This document shows, in pieces, positions 10,140-62,062 of a stretch of 64,000 nt of DNA. Under the pieces are notes generated by a model. It made no database searches. It had not been told where the DNA came from and saw nothing but the letters and a program-made list of their open reading frames with translations. Source of the stretch: Vicinamibacteria bacterium (GTDB lineage: Bacteria; Acidobacteriota; Vicinamibacteria; Marinacidobacterales; Marinacidobacteraceae); assembly GCA_963668695.2 (NCBI GenBank), contig CAXXLQ010000004.1:3849788-3913787 (forward strand), given 5' to 3'. The translations under genes were made by a program, and so were the position numbers. Positions within the stretch are counted from its first letter, which is position 1; each line of letters opens with the position of its first letter.

Positions 10140-10380
10140 TTAACAGCCTGTGGTGAAACCCGCGCGGCCCAGTTCTCCCGGTGGGGGCTCGGCCGGCGAT
10201 CCATCCCGGCTGAACCACTCCGCTTCGCTGCGTTCTGCGTTGCGTTTCGGTCGAAATACACCGGGTATTCCTCCCTCACGCGCCTTGTCAGCCGGGCCCC
10301 CACCGGGAGGACTGGCCCCACCGGGAGAACTGGGCCTCACCGGCCTCGGCGCTCACCCGGGTTCCACCACAGGCTGTTAG
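10140..10380. mobile_element. MITE copy carrying three 19-nt inserts
   Basis: Terminal inverted repeats ACAGCCTGTGGTGAAACCC / GGGTTCCACCACAGGCTGT; TTAA and TTAG flanks; homologous to other copies in the window. Confidence 0.85.
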
Positions 10381-10383
10381 ACG

Positions 10384-11832
10384 TTGCCGGCCGCTATCTC
10401 GGGGGCCGTACTTCTTCTCTACACCGCCCTTCTGTTCGGGATCGCGTGGATCTCCAGTCGCCGCGTCCACAACTTCTCGGACTACCTGGTCGCCGGCCGG
10501 CGTCTCGGGACACCGCTCGCCTCGCTGAGCCTGCTCGCCACCTGGTTCGGGGCCGGCACGCTCCTCGCTTCCGCCGAAGAAGTCCGGTCCGTAGGGTTGT
10601 CGGCAGCCGCCCTGGAGCCCATCGGTCCTGGGATCTGCTTGTTGCTGGTCGGTCTGTTCTACGCGGCCCCGCTCCGGCGGCAGGGGCTCCTGACGCTCGG
10701 GGATTTCTTCGCCGGCCGTTTCGGCCGAAGCGCGGAGATCGTCTCGGCCGCCATCATGGTTCCGAGCTTTTTCGGCTGGATCGCCGCCCAGTTCTCGGTG
10801 TTGGCCGCGCTCCTCGGCGAACTCTTCCAAATCCCGCTCGCTGCGGGTCTCCTGTTGGTCGCCGCCGTTGCCATCGGCTACACGCTGATCGGGGGGATGT
10901 GGTCGGTGACCCTCACCGACGCGGTACAAGGGGTCATCGTGGGCTTCGCGCTCATCGCCCTCGGGGTTTCCGCCCTGGCCGAACTGGGCGCCGGATCGGC
11001 CTTGGGAGGGCTGGCCCGGCTCGGACGCGAGACGCCGCCGGACCTGCTCGCCGTCGTACCCGGCGAAATGACCGCGCTGTTCGCCTGGTCCGGACTCCTG
11101 ATCGCAGGCGCCCTCGGGAACATCCCCGGACAGGACGTGCTGCAGCGGGTGTTCTCCTCACGCTCGGAACAGGTGGCCCGGCGCGCCTGCCTGATCGCCG
11201 GCAGCCTCTACCTCGGCCTCGGCGCCATCCCGGTGATGCTGGGACTGGCCAGCCGCCTCCTGCTACCCGGGCATGAAGGCGACATGCTGGCCGCGCTCGG
11301 CCGCATTCTCTTCAGTCCCCTCGCAGCACTGGGGCTCATCTTGCTGGTGGTTTCGGCGCTCCTGTCGACCGTGGACAGCGCGCTAATATCGGCCGCGTCC
11401 GTACTGGCGCAGAACCTGCTCCGCCACCCCCTGCCCCGGGTGGGGCTCTTGCGGTTGAGCCGGCTCTCAGTCCTGATGGTCGGTGCGGCGAGTCTCTTCT
11501 ATGCGTTTCGTGGTCTCAATGCGTACTCCCTGCTGGAGGACGCGTACGAGCTCACGCTCGTGGGGCTGTTCGTACCGTTGACCGCAGGACTCTTCTCGGA
11601 ACGCGGCGGACGCTTCGCCGCGCTCACCTCGATGGCCGGCGGCACCGTTTTGTGGATCATTCATCTGGCGTTCGGGTGGGACTGGTTCCTCGAGCCCGCG
11701 CTGTATTCCGCCGGCATAACGATTCCGAAGGCCATCGGCCTGACGGCCGCGAGCGGCGCCGGGTACCTGCTCGGGGCGGCCTTCGACACCGCGAGCCGGC
11801 GGCGGCCCCCGCGCCCGGGAGCCGCCGCCTGA
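10384..11832 (+). CDS. Sodium:solute symporter (choline-transporter-like subfamily)
   Basis: YLVAGR, ATWFGAG, GGMWSVTLTD, QDVLQRVFS and STVDSAL motifs. Confidence 0.9.
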   Translation: MPAAISGAVLLLYTALLFGIAWISSRRVHNFSDYLVAGRRLGTPLASLSLLATWFGAGTLLASAEEVRSVGLSAAALEPIGPGICLLLVGLFYAAPLRRQGLLTLGDFFAGRFGRSAEIVSAAIMVPSFFGWIAAQFSVLAALLGELFQIPLAAGLLLVAAVAIGYTLIGGMWSVTLTDAVQGVIVGFALIALGVSALAELGAGSALGGLARLGRETPPDLLAVVPGEMTALFAWSGLLIAGALGNIPGQDVLQRVFSSRSEQVARRACLIAGSLYLGLGAIPVMLGLASRLLLPGHEGDMLAALGRILFSPLAALGLILLVVSALLSTVDSALISAASVLAQNLLRHPLPRVGLLRLSRLSVLMVGAASLFYAFRGLNAYSLLEDAYELTLVGLFVPLTAGLFSERGGRFAALTSMAGGTVLWIIHLAFGWDWFLEPALYSAGITIPKAIGLTAASGAGYLLGAAFDTASRRRPPRPGAAA

Positions 11833-11839
11833 GCGCCCG

Positions 11840-13279
11840 ATGAGCGAGTTCCGCAACCGCGCCGAATCGCTGCGGCGCCGCTCCCGTGCGCTCGAGCCGG
11901 ATGCGGAAGAGCGGCGCACGCTCACCGAGGCAACCATCCGCCACACCGAGGAGTTTCTGGAGGGCCTGATCAGCGGCCCGTCCTGGGTTCCGCCGAGGGA
12001 ATCCCGGGAAATCAACGAACTTCCCATCGGCGCGGAAGGCCGCCCCTTTCCCGAACTCCTGGATCTGGTTCGGCGAGAGGTCGAGCAGCAGGGTCTGAAC
12101 CCTGCATCCCCGCGCGATCTGGGCTACGTCCCCGGCGGCGGGATTTTCGTATCGGCGCTCGGCGACTACCTGGCGGCCGTCGGGAATGCATTCGCCGGGT
12201 ATTTCCCCGCCTCGCCGGGAGCGGCCCGCGTGGAAAACCGGCTCGTGGAATGGATCGCCGAGATCGTGGGCTACCCGAAAGAAGCCGGAGGGACGCTGAC
12301 TTCAGGGGGAAGCGTCGCCACCCTGACCGGGGTCATCGCCGCCCGCGAGGCCAAGGGACTCCGCTCAACCGACTTCTCCCGGGCATCGATCTACGTGACC
12401 AGCCAGGAGCACTATTCGGTCCGCAAGGCGGTCCACCTCGCGGGTGTGGGTGAGGCGCCCTGCCGGATCGTCGCCGTGGACGGCGCTTTCCGCATGGCTC
12501 CGGAATCCCTGGCCGCCCAGATCCGGAAGGATCGCGCCGACGGCCTGCTGCCCTGGCTCGTAGTCAGCACCGCCGGCACCACGAACACCGGCGCGGTGGA
12601 TCCGCTGGACGCGATATCCGAGATCGCGCGGGCCGCCGGCGTCTGGCACCATGTGGACGCGGCCTACGGCGGGTTCTACCTGCTCGTTCCGGCGCGGCGG
12701 GATCTGTTCCGGGGCATCGAGAAGTCGGACTCCGTCGTACTGGATCCCCACAAGAGCCTGTTTCTTCCCTATGGAAGCGGCGCGCTCGTGGTCCGGAATG
12801 CGGCGCACTTCGACACGTTCCGCTTCCAGGCCCCCTATCTCCTTGATAAGCCGCAGGAGGAAGTCTCCCCTTCCGAGCGGTCGATCGAGCTCACCCGGCA
12901 CTTCCGCGGGATGCGCCTCTTCCTGCCGCTGCTACTCCACGGCACCGAGGCATTCGCGGCCGCGCTCGAAGAGAAGTGGTGGCTTGCCCGCTACCTCCAG
13001 GACGAACTCGGTCGCTGGGAGGACATCGAGGTGGGGCCGGAGCCCGCACTTTCGACCATGTGCTTCCGCTACCGGCCGGAAGGTCGGACCGAAGAGGAAA
13101 CGGATGAACTCAACCGCCGGATCGTCGCGGCGCTCCACGCCGACGGCCGGATCTTCATCACCGCCACCTACCTGAACGAACGCTTCTGGCTCCGGCCCTC
13201 GATCGGCATCTTCCGCACCCACATCGAGCACCTCGACGAGTTTCTGGAGATCCTGAAAGGCTTCATCGCGGAGCTCTGA
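11840..13279 (+). CDS. Group II PLP-dependent decarboxylase (aromatic amino acid/glutamate decarboxylase family)
   Basis: SGGS, HYSV, AGTTNTGAVD, HVDAAYGG and DPHK (PLP lysine) motifs. Confidence 0.92.
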   Translation: MSEFRNRAESLRRRSRALEPDAEERRTLTEATIRHTEEFLEGLISGPSWVPPRESREINELPIGAEGRPFPELLDLVRREVEQQGLNPASPRDLGYVPGGGIFVSALGDYLAAVGNAFAGYFPASPGAARVENRLVEWIAEIVGYPKEAGGTLTSGGSVATLTGVIAAREAKGLRSTDFSRASIYVTSQEHYSVRKAVHLAGVGEAPCRIVAVDGAFRMAPESLAAQIRKDRADGLLPWLVVSTAGTTNTGAVDPLDAISEIARAAGVWHHVDAAYGGFYLLVPARRDLFRGIEKSDSVVLDPHKSLFLPYGSGALVVRNAAHFDTFRFQAPYLLDKPQEEVSPSERSIELTRHFRGMRLFLPLLLHGTEAFAAALEEKWWLARYLQDELGRWEDIEVGPEPALSTMCFRYRPEGRTEEETDELNRRIVAALHADGRIFITATYLNERFWLRPSIGIFRTHIEHLDEFLEILKGFIAEL

Positions 13280-13315
13280 GGCAAGAGACCGCCAACAGGC
13301 CGGGCGGCACCGCCA

Positions 13316-13443
13316 GCGAGGGGCCCCCACCGGGAGAACTGGCCGCCGACCTCCAGGTCGGCACTGCGAGGGGCCCCCACCGGGAGAACTGGCCGCCGAC
13401 CTCCAGGTCGGCCCAGCGAGAGACCGCCGACCTCCAGGTCGGC
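13316..13443. repeat. Three tandem REP-like hairpins (GCCGACCTCCAGGTCGGC), two carrying the 19-nt insert
   Basis: About 50-bp direct repeats. Copies 1-2 read gggcccccaccgggagaactggccgccgacc; copy 3 reads agaccgccgacc. Confidence 0.85.
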
Positions 13444-13612
13444 AACTGCCGCGCGCAAGCGCGGCGAAACGCGGTCTACAACCCTTATTCCTTGCAAATC
13501 GTCCCGTGGACGGTACGTTTTGCACGGAACACCGTCCCTTTGTCCCTGTCAGGCCGCGCGTCGGTATCACGAGCGTTAATGCCGGCAGACCTGCGGTAGG
13601 CTCCATCCAGCC

Positions 13613-13990
13613 ATGGGTCGAGCGGCGGTGCAAGGGAACCCCGATCCTCCTGGGGCCGCTGCGGTGACCGACGCCGTGATCGCCGAGATGGTCGAGACGC
13701 TCGTAATGGAGGCCGATCCCGAACAGGTCATCCTCTTCGGGTCTCGCGGCCGCGGCGACGCGCGGGCCGACTCGGACGTGGACCTGATCGTGGTGGAGGC
13801 GGAACCCTTCGGTCCCGGCCGGGACCGCGTGAAGGAGATGGCGCGGCTCTACAAGGCGCTCGCTGGATTTCTGGTTCCGGCCGACATCCTCGTGTACTCG
13901 CGAGAGGATGTGGAGTACTGGCGGGATTCGCTGAACCATGTCCTGGCGCGAGCGCTCCGCGAAGGCAGGGTCGTCTATGAGCGACCCTAG
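13613..13990 (+). CDS. Minimal nucleotidyltransferase (MNT) antitoxin
   Basis: LFGSRGRGDARADSDVDL (GS-x10-DxD); overlaps the HEPN gene. Start may be GTG 13664. Confidence 0.88.
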   Translation: MGRAAVQGNPDPPGAAAVTDAVIAEMVETLVMEADPEQVILFGSRGRGDARADSDVDLIVVEAEPFGPGRDRVKEMARLYKALAGFLVPADILVYSREDVEYWRDSLNHVLARALREGRVVYERP

Positions 13991-14399
13991 GTGCGCCGAC
14001 GCGATGCTTCGAGCGGCGGAGCGCGATCTGCTGACCCTCCGGAGCATGAATCACGAAGCGCCGGAAGAGTCCTTCGGGTTCCACCTCCAGCAGGCCGCCG
14101 AGAAGGCTTTGAAAGCATGGATCGCGGCACTGGGGGACGAGTATCCGCTGACGCACAGCATTGAAACGCTGGCGAGCCGCCTCCGAGCCCTTTCCGTGGT
14201 GACGGAGCCCTTCGCACCGCTCGCCGAATTCACGCCCTACGCCGTGACCTTTCGGTATGAGGGGGTCGGTCCGGAAGCCGAACCCATCGACCGCGAAGCG
14301 ATGATCGCACTGCTTGACGCGCTGCTTGAGCGAGTGCGCGCCGAGGTCCGCAGTGGGCCTGAGGCACCGAGGTCACCTACCGACCGTCCGCCTGAGTAA
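13977..14399 (+). CDS. HEPN-domain protein (MNT-HEPN pair)
   Basis: FHLQQAAEKALKA..YPLTH..RY motif set. Confidence 0.88.
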   Translation: MSDPRCADAMLRAAERDLLTLRSMNHEAPEESFGFHLQQAAEKALKAWIAALGDEYPLTHSIETLASRLRALSVVTEPFAPLAEFTPYAVTFRYEGVGPEAEPIDREAMIALLDALLERVRAEVRSGPEAPRSPTDRPPE

Positions 14400-14500
14400 C
14401 CCGCGGCACGTTACTCCCGCGACCTGGGATCACGATCCCGACCGAGACACTGCGGCGGTCTGGACCATGATCGCTCACCACCAGTTGGCCGGACACGAAG

Positions 14501-14827
14501 GTGGGGGCGTCTTTCGAGGGGTTCGCGATCAAGCAGGTGCTGTCCTGCCTGGGGCTCGGAAACGCGTCCTTCCGGGGCACCCAGGGCCGAGCCGAGCTCG
14601 ACCTGTTGATCACCCACCGCGGGAAGCGATACGGCTTCGAGGTCAAGTACGCGGACGCACCGGGCACGACACGGTCAATGCACACCGCCATCGCGGATCT
14701 GGGACTCGAACACCGGTGGGTGATCTATCCGGGGAGCGAGCGCTACCGGTTGCGCGAGAAGATCACCGCGCTGCCGATCGGTCACGTTCCCTTCGTATTT
14801 GGCGACGGGAGTCCGGTTATCCCCTGA
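14501..14827 (+). pseudogene. C-terminal remnant of an AAA_14/DUF4143 protein
   Basis: GASFEG..ELDLL..GFEVK resembles the C-terminus of 49487-50674; no ATPase domain upstream. Confidence 0.7.
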
Positions 14828-14851
14828 GAACTGCCGGTCGCGGCTTGGCCT

Positions 14852-15257
14852 TTAACAGCCTGTGGTGAAACCCACGTGAGCGCCGAGGCCGGCCAGTTCT
14901 CCCGGTGGGGGCGAGGCCCAGTTCTCCCGGTGGGGGTCCGGCTGACAAGGCGCGTGAGGGAGGAATACCGCGTGTATTCCGACCGAAACGCAACGCAGAA
15001 CGCAGCGAAGCGGAGTGGTGAACAGCCGGTGGTGGAACCCACGGGAGCGCCGAGGCCGGCGAGGCGCCCGGTTGACAAGGCGCGTGAGGGAGGAATACCG
15101 CGTGTATTTCGACCGAAACGCAACGATGAGCGGCGCGCAGCGACGCGGTTCAGCCGGGATGGATCGCCGGGCGAACGCCGCGTGGGTTTCATCACCGGTT
15201 GTTTGGCCGGGATGGATCGCCGGTCGAACGCCGCGTGGGTTTTGCCACAGGCTGTTA
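14852..15257. mobile_element. Nested MITEs: an insert-free copy (~15021-15203) inside a copy carrying two 19-nt inserts
   Basis: The outer copy breaks at cggagtggt and resumes at ggccgggatgg around a complete inner copy with its own TIRs. Confidence 0.8.
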
Positions 15258-16559
15258 CGGGCTCTTGACCACCTCGCCGCCCTTCATGACGAACTTCACG
15301 TCCTCGAGGAGCCGGATGTCGTCGAGCGGGTTGCCCGCCACCGCGATGATGTCGGCCAGCTTGCCGTCCTCGATAGAGCCGAGGTCCGCCTCCCAGCGGA
15401 GCAGTTCCGCGGCGTTGATGGTGGCCGTCTGGATCGCCGCCATCGGCGAGATGTCCATCGCATCCACCATGATGGCGAAGTCCCGGGCGTTCCTGCCGTG
15501 CGGGAACACCGCGGCGTCCGTCCCGTAGGCGAACTTCACGCCGGCGTGGAAAGCGGCGGCGAGCCGCTCGCGCTGCTGGGCCGCCATCTCTTTCGCCTTC
15601 TGGATGGCGTATTCGGGGATGTCGTTGTCGGCCCCTTCGTCAATGATGTAGTCGAGTGTGTAGAGGGTGGGAACGACGAAGGTGCCGTGCTCCTTTGCGA
15701 GGCGGATCCCCTCGTCGTCGATCAGGGTTCCGTGCTCGATGCTGGCCACCCCGGCGCGGATCGCATCGTTCATGGCCGCCGGCGAGTGGGCGTGCGCCGC
15801 CACCGGGGTGTCGAGCATGTCCGCGGTCTCGACGATCGCCTTCAGTTCATCGAAGGAGTACGCCTGGTCGTACACCGAGTCGCCGTGCGAAAGCACCCCG
15901 CCGGAGGCGGTCACCTTGATGACGTCGGCGCCGTACTTGACCTGGTAGCGCACGGCGCGGCGCAGCTCGTCGGCGCCATCCGCGATCATCGCGTAGCCGG
16001 GGGTCGGCACGTCGGGGTTCCAGCCGTTGATGTCGGCGTGTCCGCCCGTCGAACCCACGCCCCAGGTCGCCGCCTGGATCCGGGGTCCCGGAACGACGCC
16101 CCGCTCGATCATGTCGCGGAGCGCCGCGTCGTGATAGTTCCCCGCGCCGATGTTGCGAACGCTGGTGAAGCCCTTTTCCAGGGTGATCTTCGCGTGCGCC
16201 ACCGCGTAGATCGCCTCGTGGGCGACCGTCTCCCGCATCTTCTGGGTGTCCCCGCCGTCGCCCGGAATGCCGCCGAGGTGGACGTGGCAGTCGAAGAGTC
16301 CGGGAAGGATGGTGTGGCCGCTCAGATCCAGCACGGTCGCACCCGGCGGGATCGGAATCGCCCCCATGGGGCCGACAGCGGTGATCCGCTCTCCCTCGAT
16401 GACCACCTCGGGGTTCAGGATGGGAGGGACGTCGGTGCCGACAATGAGCCGGTCGGCCCGGATCACCACCGCAGTTTCGGACTGCCATCCGGCCGCTGGA
16501 AGCGCGGCGAGAACGGCGACGCCGAGGGCGAGAGTCAAGCGGCAGAACGAATTGCGCAT
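15255..16559 (-). CDS. Secreted metal-dependent amidohydrolase (Xaa-Pro dipeptidase-like)
   Basis: PGLFDCHVH, GGHAD, AAHAH, SIEHG and YGTDA motifs; signal peptide. Confidence 0.92.
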   Translation of the reverse strand: MRNSFCRLTLALGVAVLAALPAAGWQSETAVVIRADRLIVGTDVPPILNPEVVIEGERITAVGPMGAIPIPPGATVLDLSGHTILPGLFDCHVHLGGIPGDGGDTQKMRETVAHEAIYAVAHAKITLEKGFTSVRNIGAGNYHDAALRDMIERGVVPGPRIQAATWGVGSTGGHADINGWNPDVPTPGYAMIADGADELRRAVRYQVKYGADVIKVTASGGVLSHGDSVYDQAYSFDELKAIVETADMLDTPVAAHAHSPAAMNDAIRAGVASIEHGTLIDDEGIRLAKEHGTFVVPTLYTLDYIIDEGADNDIPEYAIQKAKEMAAQQRERLAAAFHAGVKFAYGTDAAVFPHGRNARDFAIMVDAMDISPMAAIQTATINAAELLRWEADLGSIEDGKLADIIAVAGNPLDDIRLLEDVKFVMKGGEVVKSP

Positions 16560-16736
16560 CGGAAATCCCTCCGGGAGAAGCGGGCGATCGTACCCGGATT
16601 TCGGTGGGGCCAGGCACCTTCAGCGCTGTCCGGGGAGGCGAAATTGCGCATCTCGCCCCGCTCCGGGGGGCGGTTCCCGCCCCCACCAGGAGAACTGGCC
16701 GGCGTTCCCGCATTCCCGGCGGATAATCGGCGGGTC

Positions 16737-20215: not shown

Positions 20216-20219
20216 CGGC

Positions 20220-20928
20220 TTAGTAGCCTGTGGATAGAGTGGCGTGAGCACCGAGACCGGCGAGGCCCAGTTCTCCCGGTGGGGCCAGTTCTCCCGGTGG
20301 GGGCCCGGCTGACAAGGCGCGCGAGGGAGGAGCCCCCACCGGGAGAACTGGCCCGAGGGTATTCCGACCGAAGCGTAACGATGAGCAAAGCGAAGCGGAG
20401 TGGTTCAGCCGGGATGCATCGCCGGTCGCTTCCGGAGCGGGGCGCAAGCACCGCGGAGACCCCGGAGCGAGAGGGATGGGGGACGGGGACACCCGGCTCC
20501 GATCCCTCTTGGCTCGGGCTTCCGGAGCGGGGCGCGAGCACCGCGGAGACCCCGGAGCGGAAGGGACGGGGGGCGGGGTCACCCGACCACCATCCCTCTT
20601 GGCTCGGGCTTCCGGAGCGGGGCGCGAGCACCGCGGAGACCCCGGAGCGGAAGGGACGGGGGGCGGGGTCACCCGACCACCATCCCTTCTGGCTCGGGCT
20701 TCCGGAGCGGGGCGCGAGCACCGCGGAGACCCCGGAGCGGAAGGGATGGGGGACGGGGACACCCGGCCCCCATCTCTCTTGGCTCGGGCTTCCGGAGCGG
20801 GGCTCGGGCTTCCGGAGCGGGGCGCAAGCACCGCGGAGACCCCGGAGCGAGAGGGACGGGGGACGGGTCCACCCGGCCCCCATCCCTCTTGACTCGGGAA
20901 TGCCGCGTGACTTTGTCCACAGGCGGCT
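20220..20928. mobile_element. MITE copy expanded by an internal 90-bp tandem array
   Basis: MITE left part 20220-20428 and right part ~20899-20928 match the reverse complement of 42635-42840; three 19-nt inserts. Confidence 0.8.
20429..20898. repeat. Five ~90-bp tandem repeats with hairpin-forming variable halves
   Basis: cttccggagcggggcgc starts at 20429, 20519, 20609, 20699 and 20809, plus a 20-bp partial at 20789. Confidence 0.9.
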
Positions 20929-21064
20929 CACGCCCTCATGGTGTCAGAAGGCGGCAGTATCACCAGCGCCGCAACCTCTTGAACGCGAATTCAGAAGATC
21001 CCCGCAATTCCTTGAATTCGAGGTCAATTCCGAACCGGAGCGCCGGCGCCTCGTTGCCGGGGAT

Positions 21065-21763: not shown

Positions 21764-21867
21764 TCCGGCTCCCGGAGAGGCCCGGGCCCGGCCCCCGGAG
21801 AAACCCGGACCCGGCCCCCCGTCGAATATGGAGAGGAGCGCCCGCCGGACCCGGTTAGAGTTTGCCT

Positions 21868-23073: not shown

Positions 23074-23089
23074 GGGCCGAAACCCCCAT

Positions 23090-23170
23090 CCGCGGGGGAT
23101 TGGCCCGCGGGGGATTGGTCCGCGGGGGATTGGTCCGCGGGGGATTGGTCCGCGGGGGATTGGCCCGCGG
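23090..23170. repeat. 15-bp tandem repeat (CCGCGGGGGATTGGY) x5 between convergent genes
   Basis: Copies at 23090, 23105, 23120, 23135 and 23150. Confidence 0.9.
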
Positions 23171-31355: not shown

Positions 31356-31620
31356 TTAACAGCCCGTGGAAAAAGCACCCCGCACGATTTCCGGAACGGT
31401 ACGTGCGGCGATTCCGGCGATTTGTGCGCGTGCGGGGCGCTTTCCCCACGGGGTGATGGCGCGAATCGCTCCGCGATCCGCACCATCGTCTTTCGTGGGG
31501 AGGGGAATCCCCTCCCCACACCCCTCCCCCGCGGCGCTGCGCGCCGCGACCCCACACCCCTCCCCCGCGGCGCTGCGCGCCGCAAATGGATCGGACCAGA
31601 GTTTCGCCACAGCCTGTTAA
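31356..31620. mobile_element. MITE-like element with related ends but a different interior
   Basis: ttaacagcccgtggaaaa ... tttcgccacagcctgttaa; internal duplication of ccccacacccctcccccgcggcgctgcgcgccgc; shares a TTAA with the next MITE. Confidence 0.55.
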
Positions 31621-31857
31621 CAGCCTGTGGTGAAACCCGGGTGAGCGCCGAGGCCGGTGAGGCCCAGTTCTCCCGGTGGGGCCAGTTCTCCCGGTGGGGG
31701 CCCGGCTGACAAGGCGCGTGAGGGAGGAGCCCCCACCGGGAGAACTGGCCCGGGTGTATTCCGACCGAAACGCAACGCAGAACGGAGCGAAGCGGAGTGG
31801 TTCAGCCGGGATGGATCGCCGGGCGAACGCCGTCTGGGTTTCATCACAGGCTGTTAA
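31617..31857. mobile_element. MITE copy with three 19-nt inserts
   Basis: TIRs, with TTAA on both sides. Confidence 0.88.
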
Positions 31858-33532: not shown

Positions 33533-33719
33533 TCAACAGCCCGTGGCAAAACCCACGCGGCGTTCGACGGGCGATCCATCCCGGCTGAACCGCCCCGCTT
33601 CGCGGGGCTCTGCGTTGCGCTTCGGTCGAAATACGTTCGGTATTCCTCCCTCGCGCGCCTTGTCAGCCGGGCGTCTCTCCCGTCTCGGCGCTCACGCGGG
33701 TTTCACCACGGGCTGTTCA
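33533..33719. mobile_element. MITE copy with no 19-nt insert (empty form, ~186 bp)
   Basis: TIRs acagcccgtggcaaaaccc / gggtttcaccacgggctgt; interior matches other copies minus the inserts. Confidence 0.82.
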
Positions 33720-34833: not shown

Positions 34834-35493
34834 GTGGACGGCACCGACAACGCCGCCAGTTCTCCCGGTGGGGGCCTTCAGACCGGCATCGCCCCGCACC
34901 GCGGGGCGAACTTCGCAGCCGTTTCCTTCGACGTGGACGGCACCCTCTACGCGGACGGCTTTCTGCGGGCCCGGATCGCTCTCGAAGCCATCCGCCGCCT
35001 GAATCCGAGTTCCCTCCGGGATCTCTACCGTTTCGATAAACGCGCCGTTGCCGCCCGCGCCGCCGGGGGAGCACTCGACCCTTCCTGGGCTTCCACGATT
35101 CCCATCCGGCTCGAAGCGGAGGCTCGCCTGCTGCTCCCGGTCATCCGGCGCCTGGGGCCCCGGGCCGGTGCGGCCGATCTCCTGACCCGCCTCCGGCCCC
35201 GCACCCTGATCGCCGTCTCGGACTTCGACGCGGAGGCCAAGCTGGAGGCGCTCGGCCTCCGCCATCACTTCGACCACACCTACGCCGCCGAGCGGTACGG
35301 CGCCCTCAAGCCCGACCCTTTGGTCTTCCGGGCCGCGCTCGCGGATCTCGGAATTGCTCCCTCCACCCTGCTGCATGTCGGAGACCGCCCGGACACCGAC
35401 GGCCTCGCCGCCCGTGCGGCCGGCTGCCGCGCCCTCATCCTGGGCACCGACTTCGCCTCCTTTCGCGGACTCGGGGACCTGCTCGCCCCCTGA
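34834..35493 (+). CDS. HAD-superfamily hydrolase
   Basis: FDVDGTLY, KPDP and HVGDRPDTD motifs; start uncertain because the 5' end is duplicated. Confidence 0.8.
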   Translation: MDGTDNAASSPGGGLQTGIAPHRGANFAAVSFDVDGTLYADGFLRARIALEAIRRLNPSSLRDLYRFDKRAVAARAAGGALDPSWASTIPIRLEAEARLLLPVIRRLGPRAGAADLLTRLRPRTLIAVSDFDAEAKLEALGLRHHFDHTYAAERYGALKPDPLVFRAALADLGIAPSTLLHVGDRPDTDGLAARAAGCRALILGTDFASFRGLGDLLAP

Positions 35494-38461: not shown

Positions 38462-38537
38462 GGCCGCTCGGAACACAGTCTCAGATTCGCGGTGCGCGTT
38501 CGCCCGCCTCCGGCGGACGATGCCGACCGGACTCCCC

Positions 38538-38622
38538 CGCGCGCCTTGTCAGCCGGGCGCCTCGCCCCCACCGGGAGAACTGGCCGCTCTCGGCGCTCAC
38601 CCGGGTTCCACCACCGGCTGTT
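38538..38622. mobile_element. Partial MITE (one end) with a 19-nt insert; supplies the GH3 stop codon
   Basis: gcgccttgtcagccggg...gggttccaccaccggctgtt. Confidence 0.7.
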
Positions 38623-40211: not shown

Positions 40212-40254
40212 CGGGGTCGAACTCGGGGCCGAACTTGGGCGCCGGTGGACAGAG

Positions 40255-40467
40255 CCAGGCGGCCCAGTTCTCCCGGTGGGGGCTCGGCCGGCGATCCATC
40301 CCGGCTGAGCGCTGCGCCCCACTTCGCTCGTCGTTGCGCATCGGTCGAAATAACCCGGGCCAGTTCTCCCGGTGGGGGCTCCTCCCTCGCGCGCCTCGTC
40401 AGCCGGGCGCCTCGCCCCCACCGGGAGAACTGGCCGGCCTCGGCGCTCACCTTGCTCTGACCACAGG
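40255..40467. mobile_element. MITE copy with degenerate ends and three 19-nt inserts
   Basis: Interior homologous to 10140-10380. Confidence 0.78.
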
Positions 40468-41745
40468 AACCCAGGGCTGTCCGGACCGGACGAACGGCGG
40501 ATCAACCAGGGGGGCCACAAAGGCGGCAGCGATGAAGTCAATGTCTTCCTCGCGGAGGAGGGCCGGGTCCCAGGTGATCGTGACCACGGTCTGGTCGGCC
40601 TGGGACATGGCGGCGAAGTAGAGCGGATGCTGCCGGTGGAGGCAGGCGATCACCTCCATGCCCGAAACGTCCTGGAGCACCGGCTCGTCGTCACCGGGCC
40701 AGTGCTCGAGGTGCGTAAACCCGGCGGTGCCGAAGTCGGCCCACGGCCGGTAGATCCATCGGCGGAGCAGGGGGGCCGCGACAGGAAACAGCGAAGCGGG
40801 AACCGGCAGAGAGGGAACTGCCCACTCTCCCGTCCGTTTCTTCCGGTACACCATCCGGCGAACCGAGCGGCAGCGCTCCAGAAAGGCCCGGCTCTTCACG
40901 ACAGAAACCGGCTCGCGGTGAACCCGGATCCGCGACGCACCGTTCCCGAAGCCTCGGAGGCGATCCTCCCGGACGTTCATCGGCACCCAAAGCCCGATTC
41001 GATTCCCGGACACCCCCTGGTGCTCGTTCCAGGCCGCCAGCGCGTCGAGCGCCGCCGCCAGCAGACAATCGTTCCACCGGAATCCGCCGACCGTCTGGGA
41101 CAGGGAGGCGAGAGGCTCGCGGGGCACGGACACCGTACGCCAGCAGCGGCTCGCCGAAGCAGGCCCGGGACGCGTCGCGAGCGTGGCCGAGGTGCCGGAA
41201 TCCGGGTTGCGACGGGCGCCCTTTGGCGCCTCCATCAGTTTGAGCGACCCGGTCTGGGGGCGCGAGGGCATGGTGTCCAGGCCGCGCGCCATGCGTAGCT
41301 GCCGCTGCACGAACAGCAGCGTGCCGATCAGGTCCGAGGCGGCATGGTGTACCTGAGTGACGAGACTCCAGGAGGGAGGGTCTCCGGTGCCGAGCAGCAT
41401 TTGCCTGAGCGGTGGCCCCTCCTCGAGGGGAAAGGGAATCTCGAGAAACTCCTGGATCCGGGCGACGCGCTCCCCCTCCGGAAAAACCCGGATCGCCAGG
41501 GATGGCGAAGCGCCGGGCCGCGGCTCCCACATCGGTACATCGAACGGCGGCCGGCAGAGCCGGCTCGTGGACACCGGGAACAACTCCCCAGCGCCCTGAG
41601 TCCCGGCGTACAGCGGCCCGAAGTCCGTCACCGCATGCGACGACCGGCCCAGATCGAGCACCAGGGCGTAGTCCAGGGGCCGCTCCGGCGAGTCCGCGAG
41701 CAGACACGCCAGGTCGGGCGTGGCGAGCGGGATGCGTCCGGTCAG
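40447..41745 (-). CDS. Stand-alone condensation/CoA-dependent acyltransferase-fold protein
   Basis: PFPLEEGPPLR..VHHAASD (HHxxxD) and VPMNVR..GFGN. Frame is open back to a CTG overlapping the desaturase stop; alternative start GTG 41661. Confidence 0.75.
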   Translation of the reverse strand: MTGRIPLATPDLACLLADSPERPLDYALVLDLGRSSHAVTDFGPLYAGTQGAGELFPVSTSRLCRPPFDVPMWEPRPGASPSLAIRVFPEGERVARIQEFLEIPFPLEEGPPLRQMLLGTGDPPSWSLVTQVHHAASDLIGTLLFVQRQLRMARGLDTMPSRPQTGSLKLMEAPKGARRNPDSGTSATLATRPGPASASRCWRTVSVPREPLASLSQTVGGFRWNDCLLAAALDALAAWNEHQGVSGNRIGLWVPMNVREDRLRGFGNGASRIRVHREPVSVVKSRAFLERCRSVRRMVYRKKRTGEWAVPSLPVPASLFPVAAPLLRRWIYRPWADFGTAGFTHLEHWPGDDEPVLQDVSGMEVIACLHRQHPLYFAAMSQADQTVVTITWDPALLREEDIDFIAAAFVAPLVDPPFVRSGQPWVPVVRAR

Positions 41746-42634: not shown

Positions 42635-42840
42635 CTAGCAGCCTGTGGACAAGGTCACGCGGCGTTCGGCTGGCGATGCATCCCGGCTGAACCGCGCCTC
42701 TGTGAGGCGCTCATCGTTGCGCTTCGGTCGAAATACACCAGGTATTCCTCCCGCGCGCGCCTTGTCAGCCGGGCGCCTCGCCCCCACTGGGAGAACTGGC
42801 CAGCCTCGGCGCTCACGCCACTTTGTCCACAGGCTACTAG
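42635..42840. mobile_element. MITE copy with CTAG target duplication and one 19-nt insert
   Basis: ctagcagcctgtggacaa ... ttgtccacaggctactag. Confidence 0.88.
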
Positions 42841-46244: not shown

Positions 46245-47436
46245 GAACTCCACGCTCTGGCGGGGTCTGTTGCGGGGACTCCACGCTGGAGCGGTGGAAC
46301 TCCACGCGGCACGCTACTCCACGCTGGAGCGGGGTCTGCGGGCGCGCTACTCCACGCTGGAGCGGGAACTCCACGCTGGAGCGGGATCTGTTGGCGGGAA
46401 CTCCACGCTGGAGCCGCCGAACTCCACGCTGTAGCGGGATCTGTCGGCGGGAACTCCACGCTGGAGCCGCCGAACTCCACGCTGTAGCGGGATCTGTTGG
46501 CGGGAACTCCACGCTGGAGCCGCCGAACTCCACGCTGTGGCGGGGTCTGCTGGTGGGAACTCCACGCTGGAGCCGCCGAACTCCACGCAGCGGGATCTGC
46601 CGGCGGGAACTCCACGCTGGAGCCGCCGAACTCCACGCTGGAGCGGGTCTGTTGGCGGGAACTCCACGCTGGAGCCGCCGAACTCCACGCTGGAGCGGGA
46701 TCTGTTGGCGGGAACTCCACGCTGGAGCCGCCGAACTCCACGCTGGAGCGGGTCTGTTGGCGGGAACTCCACGCTGGAGCCGCCGAACTCCACGCTGGAG
46801 CGGGATCTGTTGGCGGGAACTCCACGCTGGAGCCGCCGAACTCCACGCTGGAGCGGGATCTGTTGGCGGGAACTCCACGCTGGAGCCGCCGAACTCCACG
46901 CTGGAGCGGGATCTGTTGGCGGGAACTCCACGCTGGAGCCGCCGAACTCCACGCTGGAGCAGGATCTGTTGGCGGGAACTCCACGCTGGAGCCGCCGAAC
47001 TCCACGCTGGAGCGGGGTCTGTTGGCGGGAACTCCACGCTGGAGCCGCCGAACTCCACGCTGGAGCGGGATCTGTTGGCGGGAACTCCACGCTGGAGCCG
47101 CCGAACTCCACGCTGGAGCGGGGTCTGCTGGCGGGAACTCCACGCTGGAGCCGCCGAACTCCACGCTGGAGCGGGGTCTGTTGGCGGGAACTCCACGCTG
47201 GAGCCGCCGAACTCCACGCTGGAGCAGGATCTGTTGGCGGGAACTCCACGCTGGAGCCGCCGAACTCCACGCTGGAGCGGGGCCGGCGGACGGAACTCCA
47301 CGCTGGAGGGGGTTCGGCGGATGGGGACTCCACGCTGGAGGAGGTGGAACTCCACGCTGGAGCCGCGAAGCTCCACGCTGAAGCGGGTTCGGCGGGCGGG
47401 AACTCCACGCTGGAGCCGCGAAGCTCCACGCTGGAG
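46245..47436. repeat. 1.2-kb tandem array with a 53-bp unit holding two CTCCACGCTGGAG dyads (~45 cores)
   Basis: Unit gggaactccacgctggagccgccgaactccacgctggagcgggatctgttggc; ~17 regular units plus degenerate flanks; begins at the upstream gene's stop codon. Confidence 0.95.
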
Positions 47437-49053: not shown

Positions 49054-49486
49054 GTAGGAACTCTCCAGGATTCGCAGTGGCTATTCCGAGAAGCGCATTA
49101 TCGCACCGATAATCATCATTTTCATGTCGAAATCGGATCGGGCCGGGGATGAAGTACGCAACGACACTATAGGCCTCGCCCGCCTCCGGCGGGCGAGGCC
49201 GGCCTCCACCGGGAGAAACGCCCATGATCGGGTCCTCCCGTACACCCCGCCTGGTACGAAAAAGGTGGAGCGGCACTCACATTGGCAGAGCCCGGCATCA
49301 TCGGCGCTGGTTTCGCGCTCCCGCGCGATGCCGGCCCCCACCGGGAGAACTGGCCGGAGGTCGGCGTTCCCGTGCCTGCGCGCCATCCGCTCTTTCGGGG
49401 GCCCGGCGCGACTGGATTTTCACAGCAACTGGCCGGCGGTCCCGTGCCCACGCGCCTCCCCGACAGGCGCCGCGCCCTCCAGGCCG

Positions 49487-50674: not shown

Positions 50675-50801
50675 ATGTGCAGTTTACTTTGGATCTGCCG
50701 CTCACGAGGATCAAGAAGATCTCGCGCTTCCCGCCAGCGGCGAATGGCGGCCTGGAGGCCGGCGGTCCCTTGCCGGCGCGCCGTACCGGGGCCGGCGGTC
50801 C

Positions 50802-50944
50802 CTAGCAGCCGGTGGTGAAACCCAGGCGGCCCAGTTCTCCCGGTGGGGGCTCCTCCCTCACGCGCCTTGTCAGCCGGGCCCCCACCGGGAGAACTGGGCC
50901 TCGCCGCCCTCGGCGCTCACCCGGGTTCCGCCACCGGCTGCTAG
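50802..50944. mobile_element. Internally deleted MITE with CTAG duplication and two 19-nt inserts
   Basis: ctagcagccggtggtgaaaccc ... gggttccgccaccggctgctag; the interior between two insert sites is missing. Confidence 0.82.
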
Positions 50945-52749: not shown

Positions 52750-52866
52750 GAAGCCGATGCTACCGAACCGCCTTCCGCCCGCCCGAGCAACGTTCCGGAC
52801 CGGTGGAGCGCCCGGGACCTCCCGCGGGGCGAGCCGGGTAGACTCGAACCTCGATCGAGGTGCACC

Positions 52867-54561: not shown

Positions 54562-54641
54562 AAAGGTCGCACCGCCGCCGGACCCGTCGCGTTTCGCGCC
54601 ATGACACACACCGTGGTGGAGCACGTTCAGGTCGCGACGGG

Positions 54642-55688: not shown

Positions 55689-56823
55689 GGGACCCGGGCC
55701 GCGCCGGCGGGTCGCGAAGGGGCGGCGGGCTGTGCTCGGCATCGCCGGGGGAGTCGCGGCGCTCCTGGCGGCGGCCACTCCGGGCGCTCAGGAAATACCA
55801 CCGCTGCCGCCGCCGGGCCTCGATCTGCCGCACGTCGTGCTGGTGTCCGTGGGCGGAGAGATCGCCAGGAACTGCGACACCCGCCTCGAGCTTGCCGGCT
55901 GCGAGACGAACACCGAGAGCATCGGACCGGAGACGTGGACCCGCGACCTGCCCGATCTGCGACTCGTCGCCCGGTTGACGACGGATGACCTGCGGGCTCT
56001 CCCGCGTGCCGATGGGGGATCGACCACGGAGCACTGGTACCGGGTCGCGGGACGTTTGCAGGAACTCGCCGACGATCCCGGAGTTGACGGCGTCGTCGTC
56101 GCCCATGGGACGGCTGGGCTCGCGGACACGGCCTATTTCATGAATCTCGTGGTGCGAACCCGGAAGCCGCTGGTCTTCGTCGGCGCCCAGCGTCCCTGGA
56201 GCGGGATGAGCGGCGATGGCCCGCTCAACCTCTACAACGCGGTTCGGGTGGCCGCGACCCCGGCTGCCGGCGGCAAAGGGGTGCTGCACGCCACGAACCA
56301 GGAGGTGCACGCGGCGCGCGACGTGATGAAGACGAACGCGAACCGGGTGGACGCTTTCCAGAGCGTGGACCTCGGGCTGATCGGGGTGGCGGACCCCGAC
56401 ACCGTCAAGTTCTTCTCCGAACCGACCCGCAGGCATACCTACCGCTCCGAGTTCCCGCTCGCGGCCCTCCCGGAAGCGCTTCCCGCGGTGGAGATCGTGA
56501 CTGCGTATCCGGACGCACCGGGCCGCGTGATCGATGAACTGGTGGCGGCGGGAGCGAAGGGCCTGGTGGTCGATGGCGCCGGGCCGGACAGTCTGTCCGG
56601 CGGCCAGCTCGAGGCGGTGCGACGTGCGCTGGAAAAGGGCGTCGTCGTCGTCGCCACAGCGCCCACGCGCGGCGGCCGCGTGCAACACACGGCTTTCACC
56701 CGCGAGTCCGGAATCATCCCCGGCGACAACCTGGCGCCCGGAAAGGCGCGGACGCTGCTCCGGCTGGCGCTGACGAAGACCACCGACCCCGGGGAGATCC
56801 AGCGAATCTTCCACGAATATTAG
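55678..56823 (+). CDS. Asparaginase-fold protein with a degenerate active site
   Basis: SVGGEI and HGTAG in place of TGGTI and HGTDT; DGPLNLYNAV and DNLAPGKAR retained. Confidence 0.85.
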   Translation: MSTEGPGPRRRVAKGRRAVLGIAGGVAALLAAATPGAQEIPPLPPPGLDLPHVVLVSVGGEIARNCDTRLELAGCETNTESIGPETWTRDLPDLRLVARLTTDDLRALPRADGGSTTEHWYRVAGRLQELADDPGVDGVVVAHGTAGLADTAYFMNLVVRTRKPLVFVGAQRPWSGMSGDGPLNLYNAVRVAATPAAGGKGVLHATNQEVHAARDVMKTNANRVDAFQSVDLGLIGVADPDTVKFFSEPTRRHTYRSEFPLAALPEALPAVEIVTAYPDAPGRVIDELVAAGAKGLVVDGAGPDSLSGGQLEAVRRALEKGVVVVATAPTRGGRVQHTAFTRESGIIPGDNLAPGKARTLLRLALTKTTDPGEIQRIFHEY

Positions 56824-56848
56824 GGACGGCTCCGGACCTCAAGGAACC

Positions 56849-58066
56849 ATGAGACTACGAAAAAGCACCGCAGGCCTGGCCCTGTTCCTTACCGCGCTGC
56901 CTGTGCCGGGTTCCGATGCGATCGCCCGGCAGAACGACGAATCGAGCGTCACGCTTGCCATCGTGGGTCAGGCACTGATCAAGGTGGATCCGCGAGAACA
57001 GTGGCCCAACCCCTTCGCCGGAATCCGACCGATCCTCCGGGATGCCGATGTCGCCTTCACCAACTTCGAGATGGCGGTGGACGACGAGTGCGGCGTTCCC
57101 CCTGACTACCAGGTCGTGCTCGGCGAGCCCGAGCTCGACGAGGAGCAGCGGCCCGGCAACACCGGCGGGCCCCACGCGGTCCGCGAGCACGTGATGGACT
57201 TTCTCGCGTCCATGAATTTCGGTCTCCAGTCCCTCGCCAACAACCATTCGTGGGACCTCGGAGACTGCGGCGTCATGGCGACCATCGCGGCCGCCGAAAA
57301 GTACGGCGTGACGCACGCCGGAACCGGAAGAAACCTGGAGGAGGCGACGCAGGCGGCCATCATCGAGGTGAAAGGCCTCCGGATCGCGCTGCTGGCGGCG
57401 ACGACTTCGCTGGATGAGAGAGACCTCATCCTGCCCACGCCGTCCAGCCCGGGGGTGAATGGCGTCTGGATCGGGCGCCAGGACGACTGGGATCGGAACA
57501 TCGAGGCCGTCCGTTCCGCCGCGCAGCGGGCCGACTTCGTCATCTACTACCAGCACTTCCAGATCACGAATGAGGATCTGTCCGGGGACCGCTCGAGCCG
57601 GGTCCAGGGTCATCTCGAGGTCGACGACGTTCAGGAGTGGCAGTCCCGCTTCGCAAAGGCCGTAATCGACGCCGGGGCCGGCATGTTCATCGCGCACGGC
57701 GATCGCATCTTCGACGGCGTCGAGATCTACCGGGGCAGCCCGATCATCCGGCAGTTCGGAGGATTCGCCTACCAGGGACTCCAGGCGGAGGGCTCCTACG
57801 ATCCGCTCGTGTGGGAAGGGCTCCTGGGGACTGTGACGATTCGGGCCGGACGCGTGAGCGCCATGGAGGTGTTGCCCCTCCGGCTCGACGAGGGGCGGGA
57901 GGGCGAATACGGCGGTGAGGTCGAGTTCCGGCAGAAGCGAGGCTTTTCCGATCTGGCCGCGGCAGAGCAGGGACGCCGGATCCTCGAGCGATTCGCCGAA
58001 CGCTCCCGAAACTACGGCACGAGCGTGCGGCTCGAAAACGGGCGCGCGCTGATCGAGGGCTGGTGA
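56849..58066 (+). CDS. CapA (PgsA)-family metallophosphoesterase-like protein
   Basis: TNFE, SLANNHSWD, HAGTG and VEIYRG motifs; signal peptide. Confidence 0.85.
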   Translation: MRLRKSTAGLALFLTALPVPGSDAIARQNDESSVTLAIVGQALIKVDPREQWPNPFAGIRPILRDADVAFTNFEMAVDDECGVPPDYQVVLGEPELDEEQRPGNTGGPHAVREHVMDFLASMNFGLQSLANNHSWDLGDCGVMATIAAAEKYGVTHAGTGRNLEEATQAAIIEVKGLRIALLAATTSLDERDLILPTPSSPGVNGVWIGRQDDWDRNIEAVRSAAQRADFVIYYQHFQITNEDLSGDRSSRVQGHLEVDDVQEWQSRFAKAVIDAGAGMFIAHGDRIFDGVEIYRGSPIIRQFGGFAYQGLQAEGSYDPLVWEGLLGTVTIRAGRVSAMEVLPLRLDEGREGEYGGEVEFRQKRGFSDLAAAEQGRRILERFAERSRNYGTSVRLENGRALIEGW

Positions 58067-58172
58067 CTGCCCGGGCGGGACGAAAACGCCGCCGACGGAA
58101 CCGGCCCTGTCAGACCCGCGCCTGTCAGACCCACGCAGAAGCCGCGCGCGGCAGCGCGTCGGCGCCTGGGCG

Positions 58173-61028
<2,856 letters not shown>

Positions 61029-61154
61029 GGATCGGGGGCGGGGATTGTAGGTGGGAGCGCCGATCTACAGCCGGGATCGGCTGCCCCCAGGCGAACGAAA
61101 AGCGCCAACACAGCAACCGGAAGCAGGTGAAGGACGGGATAGATTCTCCGCCGG

Positions 61155-61958
61155 ATGGCGAAAGACCACACCGAGATCCCGGTCCTCGCCGGTCTGGGCC
61201 CGGACCCGATCCGGATCCACCACCCGGAGGGCGCGTTCGTCCCGACGCCGGCGAGCCGGGTGGCGCTTCGCGCCATCGGCCGGCAGGCGGATCGGTTTCA
61301 GGGACGGGGACTCGACTGGGGCAGCGGGTCGGGCATTCTGGCGATCGTCGCCGGCCGGATCGCTGCCGTGGAGGAGGTGCTCGGGCTGGAGCTCGACCCG
61401 CGGGGCGTGGCCGCGGCCCGGGAGAATGCCCGGCGGAACGGGATCGAGGACAAGGTCCGGTTCGTCGCATCGGACTCCTACCAGCCCGTCTCGCCAGCAG
61501 GCGCCAGGACGCTCGAGCGGTTTCGCGGCGCCACCGACTTCATCATCGCGAATCCGCCCTCGTCCAGTCCGCAAGGAGACGGCTTCGAGTTCCGGCGGGT
61601 CGTTATGCGAGGGGCCCGGGACTACCTCAAAACGGGCGGATTCCTGCTCCTGAGTGTCTCGACGCAGTACGGTGAGGAGCGGGTTCGAGGGCTCGTGCGC
61701 GCGAATCCCGGATTCGTCCACGACGGGGTGGCCGCCAGCAGCGACTGGGTTCCCTTCGACATGGAACGCCCCGATCTGCGCCAGGACGTGCTCACCTACG
61801 CCCGCGAGGAAGAACGCGGGGGCCTGCGCTACGCGTTCCGCGATCCCCGCGATCCGGAGCGGGAAATGACCGCGGTGGAAGCCTGGAAGCGGCACGAAAC
61901 GGACGGGGAAAGCCCGCTCTCACGCTGGCAGAACCATCTGCTGGTCTGGACGGGGTGA
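61155..61958 (+). CDS. Class I SAM-dependent methyltransferase (PrmC/RsmC-like)
   Basis: LDWGSGSGILAI motif I and IIANPP motif. Confidence 0.85.
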   Translation: MAKDHTEIPVLAGLGPDPIRIHHPEGAFVPTPASRVALRAIGRQADRFQGRGLDWGSGSGILAIVAGRIAAVEEVLGLELDPRGVAAARENARRNGIEDKVRFVASDSYQPVSPAGARTLERFRGATDFIIANPPSSSPQGDGFEFRRVVMRGARDYLKTGGFLLLSVSTQYGEERVRGLVRANPGFVHDGVAASSDWVPFDMERPDLRQDVLTYAREEERGGLRYAFRDPRDPEREMTAVEAWKRHETDGESPLSRWQNHLLVWTG

Positions 61959-61996
61959 GATAGGCGAGACCCCGACCGCAGTGACGGCGCGAAGAA

Positions 61997-62062
61997 GGGA
62001 ACGCCGGCCAGCTCTCCCGGTGGGGGCCTTCAGACCGGCACCGCGGCCCGCAGGGTCGCGAA
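61997..62062. repeat. REP-like hairpin GGGAACGCCGG|CCTTCAGACCGGC interrupted by a variant 19-nt insert
   Basis: Between convergent genes; the same junction occurs at ~34850-34890. Confidence 0.7.

Follow-up and report, generated by a model that had tools for sequence, protein, structure and literature searches.

The final 64 kb of contig C4 in the genome assembly of a sponge-type acidobacterium (C4:3849788-3913787; this whole stretch is called the window here) carry 24 copies of a micro-element of 18 nucleotides (nt), CCAGTTCTCCCGGTGGGG, which measures 20 nt with its usual trailing GC and is much smaller than the transposons known. We provide evidence that this unit is a true independent insertion, and not an ancestral part of a miniature inverted-repeat transposable element (MITE) that was lost from the empty copies. 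The reading that we favour, at a probability of about 0.5, is that a defined micro-element is written as a block, that carrier repeats multiplied a few dozen founders, and that a unit-specific activity acting in trans does the writing. No known kind of enzyme accounts for the unit.

The source genome (G000; 4.10 Mb, 67.5% GC, 91.7% complete by marker genes) was compared with relatives (coded G001 and so on) in a set of 28 genomes over seven genera of its Vicinamibacteria family. Its assembly is a mixture of strain haplotypes: the terminal 138 kb of C4, which include the window, align as a near-duplicate to C4:9354-148038 (97-99.5% identity), contig C1 duplicates C4:304-421 kb (99%) and contig C3 duplicates C4:3505-3538 kb (98-99%). 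Overall these pieces are 97-99.7% identical, with about 268 kb aligned. The mixture is consistent with the contamination figure of 9.3%. Contig C2 was considered as an enzyme-bearing plasmid and ruled out as such, being an 87% variant of a chromosomal stretch.

The unit and its mode of insertion

An earlier note on this DNA had listed 24 sites of a 19-nt element. All of them are real, at the starts given except for one (10315 instead of 10316), though the length has to be corrected to 18 nt, or 20 nt with the usual GC. With two mismatches allowed, the 19-mer has 24 matches in the window, of which 17 are exact and 7 have one mismatch, and not a single one in 100 shuffles (0 expected by chance). 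Counting the word genome-wide, as the note had suggested, yields 1,613 matches for the 19-mer (1,123 exact) and 1,631 for the 18-mer (1,288 exact, 278 with one mismatch and 65 with two). In a position table of 1,612 sites, positions 1-18 are near-invariant and the information collapses beyond -2 to +20. The adjoining bases are mostly G at -2 (92%), G at +19 (87%, with 12% C from tandem copies) and C at +20 (88%). The unit begins with CCAG and finishes with GGGG(GC), contains no stop codon in any frame and has neither terminal repeats nor a hairpin of its own. Folding of units with short flanks, and of filled repetitive extragenic palindromic (REP) hairpins, is no better than that of shuffles (z +0.6 to +1.5); inverted unit pairs form perfect hairpins of 23-25 bp (z -6.6). 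No strand bias of the units along the chromosome (replication strand) was seen.

Evidence for insertion comes from comparing filled and empty copies. For 1,090 of the 1,629 sites there is a paralogue without the 18-mer in which the flanks adjoin exactly, and for 313 a paralogue at -1. The junction changes are as follows (slashes mark the bases affected). At site A28 of the MITE, empty GGC/GT/TCG becomes GGC[unit]GC TCG; at C108, CGG/TAT/TCC becomes CGG G[unit]GC TCC; at E145, CCGG/T/GAGG becomes CCGG[unit]GC GAGG; at B62, AAGC/GGC/GCGG becomes AAGC G[unit]GG GCGG; and in the REP, CGCCGG/T/CTTCAG becomes CGCCGG[unit]GC CTTCAG. Insertion thus swaps one to three target bases for the unit plus mostly GC, at a net gain of 18 or 19 nt. 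The targets are G-rich, typically ...CCGG/T, GC/GT or G/CG, and no target duplication appears in the comparison of filled and empty copies. The replacement of 1-3 nt and the absence of a duplication had been read correctly from the window alone.

Insertions also occur outside the carrier repeats. In G000 a unit lies in frame in an RND transporter gene (C4:394435, and again in the haplotype copy on C1), and all 19 of the other family genomes compared lack precisely these 18 nt. The closest relative (92% identical) reads CCCG/CG/CGGG where G000 has CCCG[unit]GC CGGG, and no second unit lies within 1.9 kb. An Mfd-like gene contains a unit in G012 and is empty in G000, and in G010 a unit occupies a variable linker of a CoaBC-like gene. 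In G000 the RND locus is the only one among 1,631 units inside a clear coding frame. In another genus the arrangement CCAGTTCTCCCGG[unit]GCGGGG is a unit split at its own CCGG/T by a second unit, with the same change of T to unit plus GC as at E145 and in the REPs; nesting of this kind, under the same junction rule, can only be insertion.

Unit sites are still gained and lost in place. Alignments of the haplotype pieces (about 99% identical) contain at least six differences in unit presence. Around the one at window 14918-14935, 262 nt are otherwise identical except for a change from GC to GT beside the unit. Others lie at C1:44543, C1:94437 and C3:12910, and two C108 sites on C3 differ between haplotypes, where BLAST showed a 12-nt gap plus mismatches. 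Orthologous MITEs tell the same story. The copy at 10141-10379 has A28 and two units at D139 in G000, against A28 and C108 in G001; the copy from 42636 onward is filled at E145 in G000, against D139 in G004 and G008; the copy at 31618-31856 has three units in G000 and none in G004; and the truncated copy at 38532-38622 is filled in G000 and empty in G008. From 20226 onward, G004 has a reversed unit at a different site, again with GT replaced by unit plus GC. The earlier note had itself named the alternative that the motif is ancestral and merely deleted from the empty copies, and had proposed looking for empty orthologous sites in relatives. Such sites exist (for example at the RND locus, and in G008 at 38532-38622), and the alternative is not upheld given the derived RND unit, the differing orthologous MITEs, the haplotype differences and the nesting.

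Units also serve as recombination points: the stretch between two direct units has been lost at window 50803-50943 in G000, and from the orthologue of 40240-40470 in G001. In place, the units are nearly constant. Between haplotypes they differ at 1 of 1,706 bases (0.06%), against 43 of 7,593 (0.57%) in the 60-nt flanks and 0.74% in the rest, so that divergence is about tenfold lower within units than beside them (Fisher p = 0.003), a contrast that could be overstated if reads were corrected toward a very frequent word. Of 204 MITE inserts made up of one unit, 178 are exact; 18-nt windows of empty MITEs are exact to the consensus in only 34% of cases on average.

All 16 genomes of the genus (G000 included) carry the word, in 15 to 1,566 copies. 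Copy numbers in three further genera are 17-259, 70 and 7; in a fifth genus, one of the four genomes has a single copy, and two genera have none, so the word occurs in five of the seven genera searched. That single copy, in G032, was considered as a source locus and rejected, because it sits in an ordinary MITE copy. Two other families of the order, represented by 12 genomes, yielded no copy, nor did viral contigs. In the species collection, exact matches fall in metagenome-assembled genomes labelled Acidobacteria, Vicinamibacteria or 'Candidatus Marinacidobacterium'. Altogether the word turns up in no fewer than 14 further named assembly records from different projects, in metagenome contigs and in run contigs from seven studies. 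Two further matches were set aside: a single 19-mer in an Acidimicrobiaceae coding sequence was taken as chance, and one on a 6-kb contig of a 'Gammaproteobacteria' bin, in acidobacterial REP context, as a binning error. Neither the word nor the genus name occurs in the papers searched. In one other genus (loci L013, L026, L028 and L055) we also observed a diverged unit, CCGGTTCTCCCGGTAGGG, at fixed places of a related MITE, and partial 13-nt copies, CCAGTTCTCCCGG, in tandem.

Carrier repeats and the copies in the window

The main carrier is a TA-inserting MITE with a 185-nt empty consensus and the ends ACAGCCTGTGGTG, for which G000 has 961 end matches at two mismatches or fewer. Its end-to-end lengths follow 181+18n: 46 copies measure 181 nt (empty and full-length), 43 measure 199/200 nt, 33 measure 217/218 nt, 38 measure 235/236 nt, 25 measure 253/254 nt and 10 measure 271/272 nt. 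We aligned 271 oriented copies to the consensus of the 46 empty ones and found five main sites, each with a fixed orientation: A28 (+, 116 units), B62 (-, 29), C108 (+, 128), D139 (-, 173, often double) and E145/146 (-, 91), besides a few minor ones. The claim of at least four positions in the MITE, with REP hairpins hit as well, is thereby borne out. Occupancy is diverse: 213 clean MITEs show 39 patterns, and all ten site pairs occur in all four combinations, which means that the filled MITEs are not simple nested subfamilies. Hairpin compensation between the MITE arms was tried as an explanation and rejected, as the pairing of sites is weak only (odds ratios 1.3-2.7). There are about two units per MITE end in G000, G001, G004, G008 and G009, against 0.19 in G010 (81 end matches, 15 units). 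In the low-copy genome G013, three of four terminal inverted repeat pairs among the matches listed measure 181 nt, the empty length.

The second carrier is the REP hairpin GCCGGTCTTCAGACCGGC with its relatives. A strict pattern counts 34 filled and 153 empty right halves; with unit variants read in, we estimate roughly 70 filled and 70 empty copies for the GCCGGTCTTCAGACCGGC subfamily. In filled copies the unit lies within one stem arm, and its insertion destroys the REP hairpin. The majority of units in low-copy species are found in REPs. The unit and the REP core CCGGTCTTCAGACCGG agree at 10 of 13 aligned bases, a likeness that may hint at the origin of the unit.

Neighbouring units in G000 favour spacings of 18, 25, 48, 55, 71 and 98 nt, showing that many lie inside larger repeats. 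The 144 +/- pairs at spacing 48 are MITE sites C108 and D139. Spacing 71 is common because the terminal 53 nt of the MITE (71 with a unit) stand head to tail two to three times, as at window 15150-15256 and L192:7332-7539. Tandem doubles, which had also been noticed earlier, account for 146 neighbour pairs at spacing 18 among some 1,600 units. The densest 1.5-kb windows hold 17 units, and a master array as source was rejected, the longest tandem run being only five units. An origin from a tRNA or primer-binding-site-like sequence was discarded as well: the best match to a real tRNA is 14/20, and a 16/20 match occurs only in a dubious 98-nt call. Rfam gave no family match in the window.

Most of the window copies sit in MITEs. 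The one at 10141..10379 (+) comprises the 185-nt skeleton and three units, namely 10169..10186 (+) at A28 and a tandem pair at D139 (10298..10333, -) of which one is the variant CCAGTCCT; this MITE is absent in G008. A reversed, truncated MITE starting at 14853 holds 14893..14910 (+) at E145. The unit 14918..14935 (+) occupies site D139 and is missing from the other haplotype copy at C4:90727. A MITE variant from 20226 onward has a tandem pair at D139 (20267..20302, +) and a unit at C108 (20334..20351, -), and the MITE at 31618-31856 is filled at the same two sites (31664..31699, +, a pair; 31731..31748, -). The truncated MITE 38532-38622 has its unit at E145 (38566..38583, -). The MITE at about 40240-40470 has A28 (40264..40281, +), C108 (40360..40377, +) and E145 (40416..40433, -), and the MITE starting at 42636 a unit with one mismatch at E145 (42782..42799, -). 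At 50831..50848 (+) a unit joins A28 directly to C108, the MITE stretch between two direct units having been lost; with the D139 unit at 50880..50897 (-) it forms a perfect hairpin of 23-25 bp. Two MITEs reported to be empty, at 15021..15203 (-) and 33535..33717 (+), are indeed so, both 90% identical to the empty consensus without insertions.

The remaining copies have REP surroundings. The units 13325..13342 (-) and 13375..13392 (-) adjoin a REP hairpin, GCCGACCTCCAGGTCGGC, and a second one, respectively; a third REP at about 13417 has no unit, as the note had said. The other haplotype copy contains the 50-nt block of REP plus unit once only (a copy-number change at window 13366). A solitary unit with one mismatch (16681..16698, -) follows GGGAACGCCGG in a REP-type context, and 49336..49353 (-) lies in the REP-type context GCCGACCTCCGG[unit]GCCGGC. 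Two units are inside hairpin arms: 34856..34873 (+) in the 5' arm, as GCCG[unit]GCCTTCAGACCGGC, and 62008..62025 (+), with one mismatch.

Some further observations concern the carriers and the haplotypes. A contig from public run X9 joins 14851 straight to 15255, indicating a strain without the MITE cluster 14852-15254, and has 13 additional letters behind 14824. Between two MITE copies sits an intact IS630-type element (L176, C4:666125-669565); its ends have no more than TGTGGTG in common with those of the MITE, so it may not be the mobiliser of the MITE. A satellite of about 53 nt based on CAGCGTGGAGTTCC (window about 46296-47346) shows small indels between haplotype copies and recurs elsewhere in the genome as a 1.4-kb array (L191:6738-8133). 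Unrelated to the unit, tandem repeats of 25-30 nt differ in copy number between haplotype copies at window 23105 and 38057 and at C4:3783241 and 3811953.

Competing explanations and the search for an enzyme

Under the favoured reading, the MITEs and REPs that carry the unit would have multiplied a few dozen founder insertions, with reshuffling between carrier copies. Writing itself would fall to a trans-acting, sequence-specific activity at the DNA level, distinct from reverse transcriptase, Y1/RAYT and TnpB, and it would recognise the unit itself. Such recognition would explain both the presence of the same word in several genera and its near-invariance in place. We favour a unit-specific activity because the ends are constant at many independent sites, because several genera have the same word and because targets are preferred. 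Going one step further, one may tentatively see in the unit a new class of mobile DNA: an 18-20-nt word without repeats, hairpin or coding capacity that a dedicated DNA-level writer installs and keeps up to date, replacing 1-3 bases at CCGG/T-like sites without a reverse transcriptase or HUH transposase.

The earlier note had likened the element to REP/REPIN systems (REPIN being REP doublets that form hairpins) with their RAYT, and had thought of a source next to a reverse transcriptase, among other genes. Neither idea fits G000. The Y1/RAYT profile (PF01797) has no match in this genome, with control matches in 6 of 14 genomes; nor is the unit palindromic. RVT_1 has no match in G000, G004, G008 or G018, and matches occur in just 4 of the 28 family genomes, two of them unit-free. 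TnpB gave no match above the cut-off in G000. The Y2_Tnp profile matched nowhere, controls included, and hence carries no information on G000. The ends of IS110 and IS630 were considered and rejected, as they bear no likeness to the unit; G000 has three or four IS630 copies and one of IS110, which is inserted in a REP hairpin (L174, C4:480899-484372), while G004, G008 and G014 have 10-11 IS110 copies. Cas1 is present in G000 together with a CRISPR array (L191:10876 onward, C4 about 3280875; at least 45 repeats with a 61-nt period) that adjoins a weak Cas1 match at C4:3284095-3284739. A link to CRISPR was rejected given that the array repeat is unrelated to the unit and that units are dispersed. 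The proposal of a mobile unit spread in trans by an enzyme therefore stands as far as independent insertion is concerned, and falls short on the enzyme.

Several observations weigh against the favoured reading. To begin with, we found no writer enzyme, and no tested gene family tracks the unit load cleanly. None of the six unit-free genomes contains IS110, yet G031 (70 units) and G037 (17 units) lack it too; a link with it may therefore reflect only the overall load of mobile DNA. The position of the G032 unit in a MITE copy means that sharing of the word across genera may be due to horizontal transfer of loaded MITEs. The 3' end of the unit is partly variable, with GC, GT, GG or nothing following it, and repair-type copying could also account for the replaced bases and the very short motifs in common (CCGG, GT). 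Just five MITE positions, each with a fixed orientation, hold most of the copies. The base beside site D139 is linked to the state of the site: without a unit it is GC in 325 copies and GT in 5, with one unit GT in 69 and GC in 6, and with two units GC in 127. The second unit of these pairs differs from the first in 76 of 127 cases. The difference at C1:44543 is accompanied by three base changes nearby, like a conversion tract. The five hot spots, the base linkage at D139 and the changes at C1:44543 point to few founders spread by descent or gene conversion, and probably amplification of the carrier MITEs and REPs, together with recombination, gave rise to most copies, not some 1,600 separate insertions. 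That most copies probably owe their number to carriers and to recombination at a few hot spots had been overlooked in the earlier note.

A serious rival dispenses with a dedicated enzyme, and we consider it somewhat unlikely. Units would be copied by ordinary replication or repair, through template switching or short-patch gene conversion, at stalled or broken hairpin repeats with a few shared bases as primer; the frequency would rise with copy number and the same conversion would keep the copies uniform. This explains the replaced bases without target duplication, the variable base after the unit, and the homogeneity, as a tenfold lower divergence than in the flanks is what concerted evolution gives. 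In addition, the targets have CCGG(T) or GT in common with motifs inside the unit, the hot spots and state-linked junction bases fit, single-base differences cluster round one allelic indel (C1:44543), deletions between direct units show that units recombine, and G000 lacks a match to reverse transcriptase, Y1 or TnpB. However, most sites share the first base of the tract, which as a rule breaks off after the same 18-20 bases. This holds over 57 flank clusters or more, 31 being singletons (the clustering errs toward over-merging, making 57 a lower bound), and in other genera, whereas tracts guided by microhomology would be expected to vary and to bring donor flank along. The shared bases amount to 1-4 nt, and the RND insertion has no other unit nearby. 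The filled allele at 14918 is matched by no other copy over all 116 nt (the best reaches 97%), so a conversion tract there would have to be very short.

Improbable, in our view, is a functional word under selection or drive, such as a DNA-uptake signal or a binding site for a chromosome protein, that has spread by benefit. The conservation of units in place relative to their flanks would fit, as would the same word with dialect-like variants in several genera, the frequent inverted pairs that give long hairpins, the lack of strand bias and the presence of ComEC in G000, although ComEC is not specific to uptake of a particular word. On the other hand, copy numbers range from 15 to 1,566 within one genus and are zero in two genera, and a single locus among 1,631 units falls in a clear coding frame, whereas uptake signals are common in genes. 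Moreover, units appear as block insertions and not via point mutation, and they destroy REP hairpins.

It might also be argued that the unit was never mobile itself, but is a module of the MITE and REP whose variation stems from transposition, deletion and recombination of the carrier. Only 12 of 1,629 units are bordered by unique sequence both left and right, about 1,346 fall in four MITE-site flank clusters, and the number of units scales with MITE ends at a ratio of about 2 in five genomes. Nonetheless this explanation, which we rate as very improbable, is already contradicted by the gene insertions: the in-frame unit in the single-copy RND gene, the filled Mfd-like gene of G012 and the filled CoaBC-like gene of G010. 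Unit-in-unit nesting, insertions in REP arms, the 46 full-length empty MITEs of G000, the empty-length MITEs of G013 and the excess of MITE ends over units in G010 argue against it as well. An artefact of assembly, adapters or polishing is next to impossible, for although the assembly contains redundant haplotype pieces and k-mer read correction could erase variants in so frequent a word, the word recurs in independent records, contigs and runs, and sits in frame in genes under consistent junction rules.

Relation to known repeats and significance

The closest known things appear to be the small dispersed repeats (SDR) of cyanobacteria such as Nostoc, 21-27 nt in length, which Elhai et al. reportedly described in 2008; to our knowledge their mechanism is still unknown. 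Like these, the unit is a very short word whose presence distinguishes otherwise homologous sequences, is nested in other repeats and in itself, and varies widely in copy number between relatives. It differs in being 18-20 nt long and in occurring in Acidobacteriota, and the likeness is one of descriptions, not of sequences. For the unit, by comparison, a junction rule, gene insertions, allelic differences and conservation in place are documented.

Other systems are more distant. REP/REPIN elements are imperfect palindromes of 20-40 bp with a cognate Y1 (RAYT) transposase, their inverted doublets being the replicating unit. Our unit has no such symmetry or transposase partner in G000, and inserts into REP hairpins instead of being one. 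According to PMC3116915 and PMC3733652, REPs are short, very abundant and mostly intergenic, with inverted pairs that can form hairpins, and the latter gives a GTAG or CGTC tag at one end. The unit shares their shortness, abundance, mostly intergenic location and many hairpin-capable inverted pairs, and lacks the tag. MITEs, according to PMC3733652, have terminal inverted repeats, a target-site duplication and a length of 70-300 bp; the unit has neither inverted ends nor duplication, replaces 1-3 nt and is far shorter.

Both the unit and the Rickettsia palindromic elements can sit in frame within genes: the latter, described by Ogata et al. in 2000, are said to be selfish, palindromic, about 100-150 nt long and in frame inside protein genes, whereas the unit has 18 nt, no structure and one gene locus in G000. 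Pneumococcal BOX elements (with variable numbers of boxB) and neisserial NIME/dRS3 are modular mosaic repeats, dRS3 being a 20-nt word with inverted ends that acts as a phage attachment site. They resemble our carriers in that short modules come and go within them, but BOX modules vary in tandem number at one place while units enter five places, REPs and genes. DNA uptake sequences (DUS/USS) are fixed words of 10-30 nt in about a thousand copies, with inverted pairs behind genes, conservation and genus dialects. The unit is likewise a fixed, abundant word with inverted pairs, conservation in place and dialect-like variants, but its density varies 100-fold within a genus, it is nearly absent from genes and it arrives as a block. 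Insertion templated by retroelements is at odds with the lack of RVT_1 in genomes where units occur (G000, G004, G008 and G018). Units are dispersed and not regularly spaced with unique spacers as in CRISPR, and minisatellite slippage would not predict only 146 pairs at spacing 18 with a second unit that often differs.

On the usual view, mobile DNA needs ends gripped by an enzyme (inverted repeats, hairpins or attachment sites), which in practice take up tens to hundreds of bases. An 18-base word that has no such ends has here entered at least 57 flank contexts, genes included, and is still turning over. The family offers a cleaner case than the SDR, with an exact unit, a readable junction rule and hundreds of filled and empty sister sites, and closed genomes that carry anything between no copy and about 1,500 are available for comparison. 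If ordinary repair is responsible, the unit would be a striking case of a sequence spread by conversion alone. If a dedicated writer exists, no self-propagating genetic element smaller than the unit would be known, and the unit would be part of a natural system for writing short inserts, which would provide a natural tool for short programmed insertions.

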